A stretch of DNA of 64,000 bases from NCBI RefSeq assembly GCF_003334305.1, contig NZ_QOWS01000006.1. One strand, 5' to 3'. Within the stretch, counting starts at the first letter, position 1; every line of letters begins with the position of its first letter. This document shows, one piece after another, positions 4,474-10,685 of this stretch. The translations under genes and the position numbers were made by a program. This DNA is from Escherichia coli. GTDB lineage: Bacteria; Pseudomonadota; Gammaproteobacteria; Enterobacterales; Enterobacteriaceae. The notes under the pieces were generated by a model. It made no database searches and was not told the DNA's origin. It saw only the letters and a program-made list of their open reading frames with translations.

Positions 4474-5040
4474 TTAGTGGGATTCACCAATCGGCAGAAC
4501 GGTGCGACCAAACTGCTCGTTCAGTACTTCACCCATCGCCAGATAGATTGCGCTGGCACCGCAGATCAGCCCAATCCAGCCGGCAAAGTGGATGATTGCG
4601 GCGTTACCGGCAATGTTACCGATCGCCAGCAGGGCAAACAGCACGGTCAGGCTAAAGAAAACGAATTGCAGAACGCGTGCGCCTTTCAGCGTGCCGAAGA
4701 ACATAAACAGCGTAAATACGCCCCACAGACCCAGGTAGACACCAAGGAACTGTGCATTTGGCGCATCGGTCAGACCCAGTTTCGGCATCAGCAGAATCGC
4801 AACCAGCGTCAGCCAGAAAGAACCGTAAGAGGTGAATGCGGTTAAACCGAAAGTGTTGCCTTTTTTGTACTCCAGCAGACCAGCAAAAATTTGCGCGATG
4901 CCGCCGTAGAAAATGCCCATGGCAAGAATAATACCGTCCAGAGCGAAATAACCCACGTTGTGCAGGTTAAGCAGAATGGTGGTCATGCCGAAGCCCATCA
5001 GGCCCAGCGGTGCCGGATTAGCCAACTTAGTGTTGCCCAT
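4474..5040 (-). CDS. satP: Succinate-acetate/proton symporter SatP (YaaH)
   Basis: 188-aa membrane ORF beginning MGNTKLANPAPLGLMGFG. Confidence 0.94.
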   Translation of the reverse strand: MGNTKLANPAPLGLMGFGMTTILLNLHNVGYFALDGIILAMGIFYGGIAQIFAGLLEYKKGNTFGLTAFTSYGSFWLTLVAILLMPKLGLTDAPNAQFLGVYLGLWGVFTLFMFFGTLKGARVLQFVFFSLTVLFALLAIGNIAGNAAIIHFAGWIGLICGASAIYLAMGEVLNEQFGRTVLPIGESH

Positions 5041-5188
5041 AATTCCTCAAAAATCATCATCGAATGAATGGTGAAATAATTTCCCTGAATAACTGTAGTG
5101 TTTTCAGGGCGCGGCATAATAATCAGCCAGTGGGGCAGTGTCTACGATCTTTTGAGGGGAAAATGAAAATTTTCCCCGGTTTCCGGTA

Positions 5189-5902
5189 TCAGACCTGAGT
5201 GGCGCTAACCATCCGGCGCAGGCAGGCGATTTGCAGTACGGCTGGAATCGTCACGCGATAGGCGCTGCCGCTGACCGCTTTAACCCCATTTAGTGCCGCA
5301 CCTACAGGGCCTCCCAGCCCCGCGCCGCGCAGCAAACCATGCCCAAGTACGCTCATTGCTGCGTGGGTGCGTAAAATGCGGGTCAGTTGGCTGGAAAGCA
5401 AATGCGACACGCCTTTTGCCAATAATTTGTCTTTCATCAGCAGCGGCAGCAGCTCTTCCAGCTCATTCACCCTCGCATCGACCGCGTGCAGAAACTCCTG
5501 TTTATGTTCCTCGTCCATATTCTTCCAGGTGTTACGCAGAAATTGTTCCAGTAACTGTTGCTCAATCTCAAACGTAGACATCTCTTTGTCGGCTTTCAGC
5601 TTCAATCGTTTTGAAACATCGAGCAAAATGGCCCGATACAATTTACCGTGTCCGCGCAGTTTGTTGGCGATACTATCGCCACCAAAATGCTGTAATTCTC
5701 CAGCAATCAGCTGCCAGTTGCGGCGATGTTGCTCGGGATGCCCTTCCATCGATTTAAACAGTTCGTTGCGCATCAGTACGCTGGAGAGGCGAGTTTTGCC
5801 TTTTTCATTATGGGTGAGCAATCGGGCGAAATTTGCCAACTGTTCCTCACTGCAATGCTGGAGAAAATCCAGATCTGAATCATTCAGGTAATTAACATTC
5901 AT
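5189..5902 (-). CDS. yaaW: UPF0174 family protein YaaW
   Basis: 237-aa ORF at the syntenic position between satP and yaaI. Confidence 0.88.
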   Translation of the reverse strand: MNVNYLNDSDLDFLQHCSEEQLANFARLLTHNEKGKTRLSSVLMRNELFKSMEGHPEQHRRNWQLIAGELQHFGGDSIANKLRGHGKLYRAILLDVSKRLKLKADKEMSTFEIEQQLLEQFLRNTWKNMDEEHKQEFLHAVDARVNELEELLPLLMKDKLLAKGVSHLLSSQLTRILRTHAAMSVLGHGLLRGAGLGGPVGAALNGVKAVSGSAYRVTIPAVLQIACLRRMVSATQV

Positions 5903-5927
5903 TTTTTGTGGCTTCTATATTCTGGCG

Positions 5928-6332
5928 TTAGTCGTCGCCGATAATTTTCAGCGTGGCCATATCCGATGAGTTCACCGTATGACCGGAAAAGGTGATTTTT
6001 GAGACGCAGCGTTTATTGTCGTTATCGCTGTTAATGTTGATCCAGTCAGTGGTTTGCCCTTCTTTTATTTCTGAAGGAATATTCAGGCTCTGACTGGCGC
6101 TACGGGCGGCTTTGAAATAAACCGATGCACCGCTTAACTGTAAATCGCCATGGTCGGCAGAGAGTTGTATGCGTTTAACAATTCGGCAAACAGGAAGTTT
6201 CAGCGCCAGATCGTTGGTTTCGTTACGTGGCATCGCAATGACGCCGAGGATTTTATGGTCGTTTGCCTGCGCCGTGCAGCACAGCATCAGACTAATCGCC
6301 AGGCTGGCGGAAATCGTAAAAACGGATTTCAT
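5928..6332 (-). CDS. yaaI: DUF2541 secreted protein YaaI
   Basis: 134-aa ORF with an N-terminal signal peptide ([23 protein letters not shown]). Confidence 0.88.
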
Positions 6333-6554
6333 AAGGATTCACTTAGTGGGGAGAGGTAGGGGGATGGATACCCACTAGTTTACTGCTGATAAAGAGAAGA
6401 TTCAGGTGCGTAATGTTTTCTTTTTATTACAATTTTTTGATGAATGTCTTGGCTGCGATTCATTCTTTATATGAATAAAATTGCTGTCAGTTTCACGTCT
6501 TGTCCTGCTATATCGCGAAATTTCTGCGCAAAAGCACAAAAAATTTTTGCATCT

Positions 6555-6590
6555 CCCCCTTGATGACGTGGGTTACGACCCCATTTAGTA
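6555..6590 (+). promoter_or_regulatory. dnaK heat-shock (sigma-32) promoter P1
   Basis: cccccTTGATG (-35-like) followed by CCCCATTTA (-10-like), matching the sigma-32 consensus CTTGAAA / CCCCATnT, about 120-150 bp upstream of dnaK. Confidence 0.6.
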
Positions 6591-6708
6591 GTCAACCGCA
6601 GTGAGTGAGTCTGCAAAAAAATGAAATTGGGCAGTTGAAACCAGACGTTTCGCCCCTATTACAGACTCACAACCACATGATGACCGAATATATAGTGGAG
6701 ACGTTTAG

Positions 6709-8625
6709 ATGGGTAAAATAATTGGTATCGACCTGGGTACTACCAACTCTTGTGTAGCGATTATGGATGGCACCACTCCTCGTGTGCTGGAGAACGCCGA
6801 AGGCGATCGCACCACGCCTTCTATCATTGCCTATACCCAGGATGGTGAAACTCTGGTTGGTCAGCCGGCTAAACGTCAGGCAGTGACGAACCCGCAAAAC
6901 ACCCTGTTTGCGATTAAACGCCTGATTGGCCGCCGCTTCCAGGACGAAGAAGTACAGCGTGATGTTTCCATCATGCCGTTCAAAATTATTGCTGCTGATA
7001 ACGGCGACGCATGGGTCGAAGTTAAAGGCCAGAAAATGGCACCGCCGCAGATCTCTGCTGAAGTGCTGAAAAAAATGAAGAAAACCGCTGAAGATTACTT
7101 GGGTGAACCGGTAACTGAAGCTGTTATCACCGTACCGGCATACTTTAACGATGCTCAGCGTCAGGCAACCAAAGACGCAGGCCGTATCGCTGGTCTGGAA
7201 GTAAAACGTATCATCAACGAACCGACCGCAGCTGCGCTGGCTTACGGTCTGGACAAAGGTACTGGCAACCGTACTATCGCGGTTTATGACCTGGGTGGTG
7301 GTACTTTCGATATTTCTATTATCGAAATCGACGAAGTTGACGGCGAAAAAACCTTCGAAGTTCTGGCTACCAACGGTGATACCCACCTGGGTGGTGAAGA
7401 CTTCGACAGCCGTCTGATCAACTACCTGGTTGAAGAATTCAAGAAAGATCAGGGCATTGACCTGCGCAACGATCCGCTGGCAATGCAGCGCCTGAAAGAA
7501 GCGGCAGAAAAAGCGAAAATCGAACTGTCTTCCGCTCAGCAGACCGACGTTAACCTGCCGTACATCACTGCAGATGCGACCGGTCCGAAACACATGAACA
7601 TCAAAGTGACTCGTGCGAAACTGGAAAGCCTGGTTGAAGATCTGGTAAACCGTTCCATTGAGCCGCTGAAAGTTGCACTGCAGGACGCTGGCCTGTCCGT
7701 ATCTGATATCGACGACGTTATCCTCGTTGGTGGTCAGACTCGTATGCCAATGGTTCAGAAGAAAGTTGCTGAGTTCTTTGGTAAAGAGCCGCGTAAAGAC
7801 GTTAACCCGGACGAAGCTGTAGCAATCGGTGCTGCTGTTCAGGGTGGTGTTCTGACTGGTGACGTGAAAGACGTACTGCTGCTGGACGTTACCCCGCTGT
7901 CTCTGGGTATCGAAACCATGGGCGGTGTGATGACGACGCTGATCGCGAAAAACACCACTATCCCGACCAAGCACAGCCAGGTGTTCTCTACCGCTGAAGA
8001 CAACCAGTCTGCGGTAACCATCCATGTGCTGCAGGGTGAACGTAAACGTGCGGCTGATAACAAATCTCTGGGTCAGTTCAACCTGGATGGTATCAACCCG
8101 GCACCGCGCGGCATGCCGCAGATCGAAGTTACCTTCGATATCGATGCTGACGGTATCCTGCACGTTTCCGCGAAAGATAAAAACAGCGGTAAAGAGCAGA
8201 AGATCACCATCAAGGCTTCTTCTGGTCTGAACGAAGATGAAATCCAGAAAATGGTACGCGACGCAGAAGCTAACGCCGAAGCTGACCGTAAGTTTGAAGA
8301 GCTGGTACAGACTCGCAACCAGGGCGACCATCTGCTGCACAGCACCCGTAAGCAGGTTGAAGAAGCAGGCGACAAACTGCCGGCTGACGACAAAACTGCT
8401 ATCGAGTCTGCACTGACTGCACTGGAAACTGCTCTGAAAGGTGAAGACAAAGCCGCTATCGAAGCGAAAATGCAGGAGCTGGCACAGGTTTCCCAGAAAC
8501 TGATGGAAATCGCCCAGCAGCAACATGCCCAGCAGCAGACTGCCGGTGCTGATGCTTCTGCAAACAACGCGAAAGATGACGATGTTGTCGACGCTGAATT
8601 TGAAGAAGTCAAAGACAAAAAATAA
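6709..8625 (+). CDS. dnaK: Molecular chaperone DnaK (Hsp70)
   Basis: 638-aa ORF with [17 protein letters not shown] and other Hsp70 signatures. Confidence 0.98.
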
Positions 8626-10205: not shown

Positions 10206-10685
10206 ATCTGCCGTTCAGCTAATGCCTGAGACAGATAGCCTCAAGCACCCGCCGCTATTATATCGCTCTCTTTAACCCATTCTGTTTTATCGATTCTAAT
10301 CCTGAAGACGCCTCGCATTTTTGTGGCGTAATTTTTTAATGATTTAATTATTTAACTTTAATTTATCTCTTTATCGCAATTATTGACGACAAGCTGGATT
10401 ATTTTTGAAATATTGTCCTAACAAATAACGCCGACTGACAAGAAATTAATTATTACTTTTCCTAATTAATCCCTCAGAAATCCTGACCTTAAGCTATGAT
10501 TATCAGGGCTTAGGGTCACCCGTTAGCGCTTACAGCCGTCAAAAACTCATCTCACCGCTGATGGCGCAAATCCTTTAATTGCTCGTAAAAAACGAGTTAT
10601 TCCTACACTATAATCTGATTTTAACGATGATTTGTGCGGGGTAAAATAGTAAAAACGATCTATTCACCTGAAAGAGAAATAAAAA

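Follow-up and report, generated by a model that had tools for sequence, protein, structure and literature searches.

The contested htgA/mbiA reading frame inside yaaW of Escherichia coli is probably maintained passively by the YaaW sequence

The long plus-strand open reading frame (ORF) nested in the minus-strand gene yaaW of Escherichia coli is the long allele of htgA (also htpY, now mbiA), a known and contested gene of this organism; the feature is already annotated in K-12, and nothing at the site is new. We consider it likely that htgA is a passively maintained ORF, protected by the sequence of YaaW, rather than a protein under selection, and from its pattern of variation we infer the absence of a selected function of the HtgA protein. 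Under such passive maintenance the HtgA sequence would drift, and its 3' end would be cut at various places in natural strains; antisense transcription, perhaps with some translation, may still take place at htgA, as the literature suggests. The DNA analysed, hereafter called the window, is a stretch of 64,000 nucleotides of E. coli (assembly GCF_003334305.1, contig NZ_QOWS01000006.1), and all positions refer to this window unless K-12 is named.

The ORF listing and its translation agree with the original prediction, which had described a plus-strand frame of 174 aa within yaaW. The frame lies at 5367..5891 (GTG start, TAA stop at 5889-5891), wholly nested in the minus-strand yaaW at 5189..5902, which encodes a protein of 237 aa with a DUF3944 domain and a ubiquinol-cytochrome-c-chaperone-like domain (Pfam Ubiq_cyt_C_chap). 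From stop to stop the plus-strand frame is open over 5262..5891 (209 codons plus stop), and from the annotated ATG the long allele of htgA/mbiA occupies 5376..5891 (171 aa). The two genes stand in the 123/213 ('-2') codon phase, the one given for this pair by Delaye 2008 (PMC2268670), in which position 3 of htgA is opposite position 3 of yaaW, and positions 1 and 2 are opposite positions 2 and 1, respectively. The gene order in the window is mog, satP (4474..5040), yaaW, yaaI (5928..6332) and dnaK (6709..8625), and the htgA ORF is located between satP and yaaI, upstream of dnaK, as at the b0012 locus of K-12.

In the annotation of K-12 MG1655, yaaW (b0011) occupies 10643..11356, and mbiA (b0012, formerly htgA/htpY; YP_009518733.1, UniProt P28697) occupies 10830..11315 inside yaaW on the opposite strand. 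The window is offset from K-12 by 5,454 bases, the ATG at 5376 being K-12 position 10830 and the equivalent of K-12 mbiA (161 aa) being 5376..5861 on the plus strand. From this ATG the window protein is identical to K-12 MbiA/HtgA at 161 of 161 residues, with the same locus, strand, frame and start, and the match to the contested htgA/mbiA that had been proposed from position is thereby confirmed. The stop of K-12 is not shared: K-12 mbiA ends at TGA, while the window has TGG at 5859-5861, reads through and ends 10 codons later with the additional residues WRKSRSESFR. This is an allelic difference in the same gene, the window carrying the majority allele. The region belongs to the E. coli chromosome: a query of 5100..6000 matches 5,425 of 5,426 complete genomes, some of them, M217 for example, at 100% identity. 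Of the 5,425 matches, three sit on records labelled as plasmids, probably through a wrong replicon assignment or because the record is a piece of chromosome.

The name of the host gene differs between annotations. In every non-K-12 E. coli genome sampled, RefSeq/PGAP calls yaaW 'msyB, acidic protein MsyB', and residues 1-237 of YaaW are hit with 519 bits by the NCBIfam model NF007593 (PRK10236.1), titled 'acidic protein MsyB'. The real MsyB (K-12 b1051, 124 aa) has no relationship to YaaW (BLASTP E = 2.6) and matches another model, NF008544. NF007593 therefore appears to be mislabelled, and the error appears to have spread through thousands of genomes.

An alternative view takes htgA/mbiA as a genuine, recently overprinted gene of Escherichia and Shigella, of which the product, or its N-terminal ~105-145 residues, is weakly or conditionally functional, for example in biofilm formation. 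We regard this as unlikely; the published record speaks in its favour. Strand-specific stop mutants of Fellner and colleagues reportedly showed biofilm and metabolite differences and no temperature phenotype, and the gene is said to have been renamed mbiA. The study (Fellner et al. 2014) is cited by the same group as a verified htgA phenotype. As summarised by Delaye 2008 (PMC2268670), Missiakas 1993 described the cloning of htgA, Northern blots, protein labelling and promoter mapping. The literature thus reports an htgA transcript, labelling of its protein, activity of a promoter and phenotypes of strand-specific mutants, and mbiA is still annotated in the RefSeq entry of K-12. According to the same summary by Delaye 2008 (PMC2268670), a later study observed no sigma-32 induction of htgA, and its start codon was re-annotated. 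Delaye 2008 (PMC2268670) proposed htgA as a gene born by overprinting, and the same authors called its existence controversial.

Part of this record also fits a different scheme, in which the plus strand directs a non-coding antisense RNA that modulates yaaW, by transcriptional interference or by an RNA duplex, the phenotypes arising from the RNA or from yaaW expression and the ORF being incidental. The intragenic promoter in htgA/yaaW that is active in vitro (PMC2731890) and the Northern signal and promoter mapping, in the form summarised by Delaye 2008, are both consistent with such an RNA, and the 'strand-specific' stop mutation also alters the yaaW mRNA and the antisense RNA. We nevertheless judge a regulatory RNA to be quite improbable. 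In simple scans of the plus strand, no sigma-70-like promoter was found upstream of the ORF, and no sigma-32 promoter (CTTGAAA, 12-15 nt spacer, CCCCATNT) was found with a match of at least 10/14 in 5040-5420; as a positive control, the sigma-32 scan recovers the dnaK P1 and P2 promoters at 6559 and 6634. Membership in the sigma-32 heat-shock regulon, the original claim for htgA/htpY, is thus not borne out by an upstream motif, while the dnaK control worked. Rfam, searched over 5000-6700 with E values up to 1, yielded no match. The pervasive antisense transcription of E. coli is for the most part considered to be noise.

With respect to the start of htgA, the annotated codon is the ATG at 5376 rather than the GTG at 5367. 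The GTG is present in all E. coli sampled, and GTC or GTA is found in its place in two of three other Escherichia lineages. The GTG was rejected as a start codon, being unconserved in other Escherichia species and preceded by a weaker Shine-Dalgarno sequence (-0.9 kcal/mol), and the ATG is preferred. The Shine-Dalgarno duplex before the ATG has an energy of -3.9 kcal/mol, the median over genes being -3.5 and the background at random sites -2.4, and this strength is reached by about 21% of random sites. An ATG kept within Escherichia behind a Shine-Dalgarno sequence of average strength is what a genuine gene would display, but the same ATG is also present in 7 of 11 non-Escherichia sequences, in all of which the frame is closed. 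The earlier start of htgA, giving 196 aa, was placed at yaaW nt 632 (Delaye 2008, PMC2268670), which corresponds to window position 5271 and is CTG here.

The phylogenetic distribution of the frame was scanned with one genome per species at 17 loci, yaaW orthologues being full-length in 14 enterobacterial loci. The frame is long only in Escherichia, namely in E. coli, two cryptic Escherichia lineages and E. albertii. In Citrobacter, Salmonella, Kluyvera, Pseudescherichia and related taxa it contains 5-8 stops, with open runs of 59-102 codons. The same restriction to Escherichia was described by Delaye 2008 (PMC2268670) and is reproduced here with newer genomes; a frame open in this genus only is in favour of a recently overprinted gene. 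One of the sites at which the frame was opened is 5685..5687 (plus strand), which is AAA here and TAA in seven non-Escherichia taxa, YaaW residue 73 being Phe in Escherichia and Tyr in those taxa. Compared with the nearest relatives, opening involved the change of YaaW Tyr73 to Phe, by which the TAA at 5685 was lost, together with silent changes at 5691 and 5403. The frame would then have arisen in the ancestor of Escherichia through about three changes (Tyr73 to Phe and silent changes at 5691 and 5403), followed by passive persistence. In one of the genomes compared, labelled Escherichia coli SCPM-O-B-8794 (NZ_JAATUR010000005.1), 81 of the 714 yaaW positions differ from the window; the corresponding differences are 99 for E. 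albertii, 77 for Escherichia sp. E1V33 and at most 25 for true E. coli. By this distance the SCPM-O-B-8794 genome probably represents a cryptic lineage of Escherichia that has been entered as E. coli.

The integrity of the htgA ORF is not preserved across the population. Among 20 intact Escherichia sequences, the length from the ATG was 171, 161, 145 or 105 aa, and the frequency of the underlying alleles was counted by exact 31-mer searches of 5,426 complete E. coli genomes. At 5859..5861 (plus strand), TGG, the read-through form of the window, is carried by 3,856 of the 5,426 genomes and TGA, the K-12 type ending at 161 aa, by 1,500; the change is silent in yaaW (Leu CTC/CTT). At 5811..5813 (plus strand), which is TGG here, TGA is found in 248 of 5,426 genomes and gives 145 aa; this form occurs in some E. 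coli and in E. albertii and is again yaaW-silent (Thr ACC/ACT). At 5691..5693 (plus strand), TGT here, TGA is found in 154 of 5,426 genomes, those of the Nissle 1917 / 83972 group, giving 105 aa and changing a Leu of YaaW to Phe. Altogether about 35% of the 5,426 genomes carry a version shorter than the long form (161, 145 or 105 aa), and the largest truncation removes up to 39% of the ORF length, both of which argue against a protein kept for its function. Many outgroups also have TGA at 5859, and the long allele may therefore have arisen secondarily, by loss of this stop.

Nonsense changes are also no rarer than expected: across Escherichia, 3-4 were counted among 119 yaaW-silent events, on the assumption that the changes at 5813 and 5861 each arose once or twice, and 2.0-2.5 were expected, indicating no deficit. 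Two strains have lost the antisense ORF together with its host gene. In PSS-04, yaaW has a 1-bp deletion near the window equivalent of 5470 and is annotated as a frameshifted pseudogene, and in PS2Canimalfeces12, an IS1 insertion splits yaaW; in both, the antisense ORF is destroyed as well.

The first 105 codons behave differently from the remainder in that no stop interrupts them in any of the 20 intact Escherichia sequences examined, and this is a point on the side of a functional gene. It bears in particular on a narrower proposal, that the N-terminal ~105-145 residues of HtgA are a translated, de novo, Cys/Ser-rich Escherichia protein with a weak conditional function in biofilm, the C-terminus being dispensable and the protein too young or too weakly selected to give a dN/dS signal. 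We think this proposal rather unlikely to be correct. In the whole of 5376-5888, only seven single-base changes lead to a stop while leaving yaaW silent; three of these are transitions, and two of the three are seen as natural polymorphisms. Within the first 105 codons there are only four such routes, three of them transversions, and the openness of this part is therefore weak evidence of coding.

Selection on the HtgA protein was examined in 17 E. coli and 3 other Escherichia sequences by an OLGenie-like scheme, in which every variant is sorted by what it does to htgA and to yaaW; the counts are a consensus-based tally on a modest sample, with no full phylogenetic codon model. Within 5376-5888, the fraction of HtgA-changing events among yaaW-silent changes was 8/29 within E. 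coli and 27/90 between Escherichia lineages, against a neutral expectation of 20-33% depending on transition bias. The pooled omega of htgA (dSN/dSS) ranged from 0.85 (kappa 1) to 1.62 (kappa 7), and an omega of 0.5 or less was rejected at every kappa, with P from 7e-3 to 9e-8. For the N-terminal 105 codons, dSN/dSS was 1.06-1.21, and three control clades with a closed frame gave 1.07-1.46, the same as htgA. In contrast, the non-synonymous changes of yaaW itself gave dNS/dSS of 0.1-0.6, that is, purifying selection, indicating that the same tally detects selection where it is present. A dNN/dNS of about 0.2, which might be taken as selection on htgA, was rejected as a measure, because it is confounded by selection on YaaW (NN changes hit yaaW positions 1 and 2, and NS changes are mild third-position replacements) and is based on only three NS events.

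These results indicate that the HtgA sequence is without purifying selection beyond that on the mother gene, and that its substitutions occur at the neutral rate. They weigh against a functional protein, full-length or N-terminal, although a gene that is very young and selected only weakly or conditionally could escape a dN/dS test. The same lack of constraint at the level of coding would suit a non-coding antisense RNA. The density of yaaW-silent variants, by hand count, is 5.7 per 100 nt where the genes overlap and 5.4 in the rest of yaaW, giving no sign of constraint at the RNA level; the search for excess synonymous constraint in yaaW, suggested beforehand as a check on overlapping function, thus returned no excess.

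A slower evolution of yaaW where it is overlapped by htgA was the main indirect evidence of Delaye for a functional overlap. Relative-rate tests set Escherichia against Citrobacter/Salmonella, with seven enterobacterial outgroups as reference, and the ratio of lineage-specific changes, m1/m2, was 1.02 for yaaW nt 1-408, 1.00 for the htgA overlap, 1.04 for satP and 0.90 for yaaI. With these seven outgroups the slowdown was not reproduced, and a support for the overprinted gene is lost.

How, then, does the antisense frame stay open? An antisense open run of at least 170 codons is in itself not unusual, as 19 such runs, spread over 17 different ORFs, were found among the 49 long ORFs of the window. 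In the 123/213 frame, htgA is the clear outlier of the window, its run spanning 88% of the host gene as compared with 69% for the next highest. When the YaaW protein was kept unchanged, open runs of at least 209 codons arose in 5.7% of trials if codons were drawn from genomic usage and in 10.3% of trials of within-gene synonymous shuffling; when the codon order was shuffled, and the protein not kept, the proportion was 0.18%. Since the protein-fixed randomisations give 5.7-10.3%, most of the ORF length follows from the amino-acid sequence of YaaW.

The residues involved can be specified. In the 123/213 phase a stop arises only where a His or Gln codon (CA-) of yaaW follows a T-ending codon, or where Tyr follows a codon with T or C in the last position. 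There are 20 potential stop sites of this kind inside the ORF, and 11 of the 20 follow Glu, Gln, Lys or Trp, as in the pairs Glu-Gln, Gln-His, Trp-Gln and Lys-Gln. Codons for Glu, Gln, Lys and Trp never end in T or C, which locks those sites against becoming stops. Because 11 of the 20 stop sites are locked by the preceding residue, purifying selection on YaaW protects the antisense frame. It had been suggested at the outset that the ORF could be a by-product of yaaW codon structure. The randomisation, substitution and integrity tests all favour a by-product, and yaaW largely explains the open frame, with the correction that residue pairs of YaaW count for more than codon usage. In agreement with this, Mir and Schober 2014 (PMC4182739) pointed out that the mother gene, being under selection, shields the -2 frame, whose conservation 'might be solely an artefact'.

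The frame of htgA is to be distinguished from that of classical shadow ORFs, the long antisense frames of genes with a strong bias, which are directly complementary to the sense frame and owe their openness to avoided TTA, CTA and TCA codons. The htgA frame is offset by one base, and its openness depends, unlike theirs, on the residues before His, Gln and Tyr in YaaW. A shadow ORF of the classical type is present in the same window: the directly complementary antisense frame of dnaK (6709..8625, plus strand) is open over the whole gene, for 639 codons, far exceeding htgA. It is likewise passively open, a reminder that the passive origin of long antisense ORFs does occur. Within yaaW there is also a second plus-strand ORF at 5293..5577 (94 aa, GTG start), rich in Ala, Ser and Pro and in the other offset antisense frame; we see no reason to treat it as other than a passive ORF.

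The predicted product has the character of an antisense translation. HtgA contains 41 Ser and 16 Cys in 171 residues (24% Ser, 9.4% Cys) and no His, bearing out the Ser/Cys-rich character read from the translation at first. Scored by the log-likelihood ratio (LLR) of antisense against real composition, HtgA reaches 0.327 per residue, a value attained by none of the window's 46 antisense translations (the highest being 0.321), whereas real proteins lie between -0.29 and -0.07. The composition is typical of antisense-frame translation, and this extreme, together with 16 Cys, speaks against a genuine gene, as does the lack of a predicted fold and of homologues. No family for HtgA was found in Pfam or NCBIfam, and a search of 5.8 billion proteins returned a single genuine matching cluster, from E. 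coli. AlphaFold, run on the single HtgA sequence, gave a pLDDT of 28 and no secondary structure, a result that is weakly informative for an orphan.

Three further matches were rejected as distant homologues of HtgA, P0002 (52% identical, 201 aa) and P0004 being frameshift mosaics of an error-rich metagenome assembly and P0003 being a chimera. The metagenome contig ENA ERZ11448917 contig_355 carries the same locus, but gene calling there breaks dnaK into four pieces and satP into two. Such an error-rich assembly accounts for the frameshift mosaics P0002 and P0004, which look like divergent HtgA in protein searches.

Antisense genes of the same general type have been described in E. coli O157:H7, and htgA/yaaW is listed with nog1/citC, asa, pop/ompA, laoB and ano among the few E. 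coli cases. Like htgA, these O157:H7 genes are embedded in an older mother gene, are taxonomically restricted and are proposed to have arisen by overprinting. The primary evidence for them is ribosome profiling, whereas htgA was not found in the EDL933 and Sakai tables that were searched, one of them in part, although these come from the group that argues for the gene. Among the supplementary tables searched of the multi-strain ribosome-profiling preprint (bioRxiv 2020.11.18.388249), the htgA ORF was found only in the BLAST table. Its end coordinate 11362 (and also 11359) is absent from tables S4, S6 and S10 of that preprint, with S2 covered in part, and the absence from these tables of transcribed and footprint-covered ORFs of EDL933 and Sakai is a weak negative for a genuine gene. 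Also unlike the picture for the O157:H7 candidates, htgA shows frequent natural truncation and neutral evolution in population data.

The htgA/yaaW pair is a textbook-style example of bacterial overprinting and is still annotated as such a pair of genes in K-12. If the N-terminal part of HtgA were in fact translated and weakly functional, it would show, in a cellular genome, a gene caught in the course of being born by overprinting. If the ORF merely follows from the YaaW sequence, as we consider likely, htgA/yaaW is an example to be cited with caution, and a conserved -2 antisense ORF is in itself no evidence of coding.
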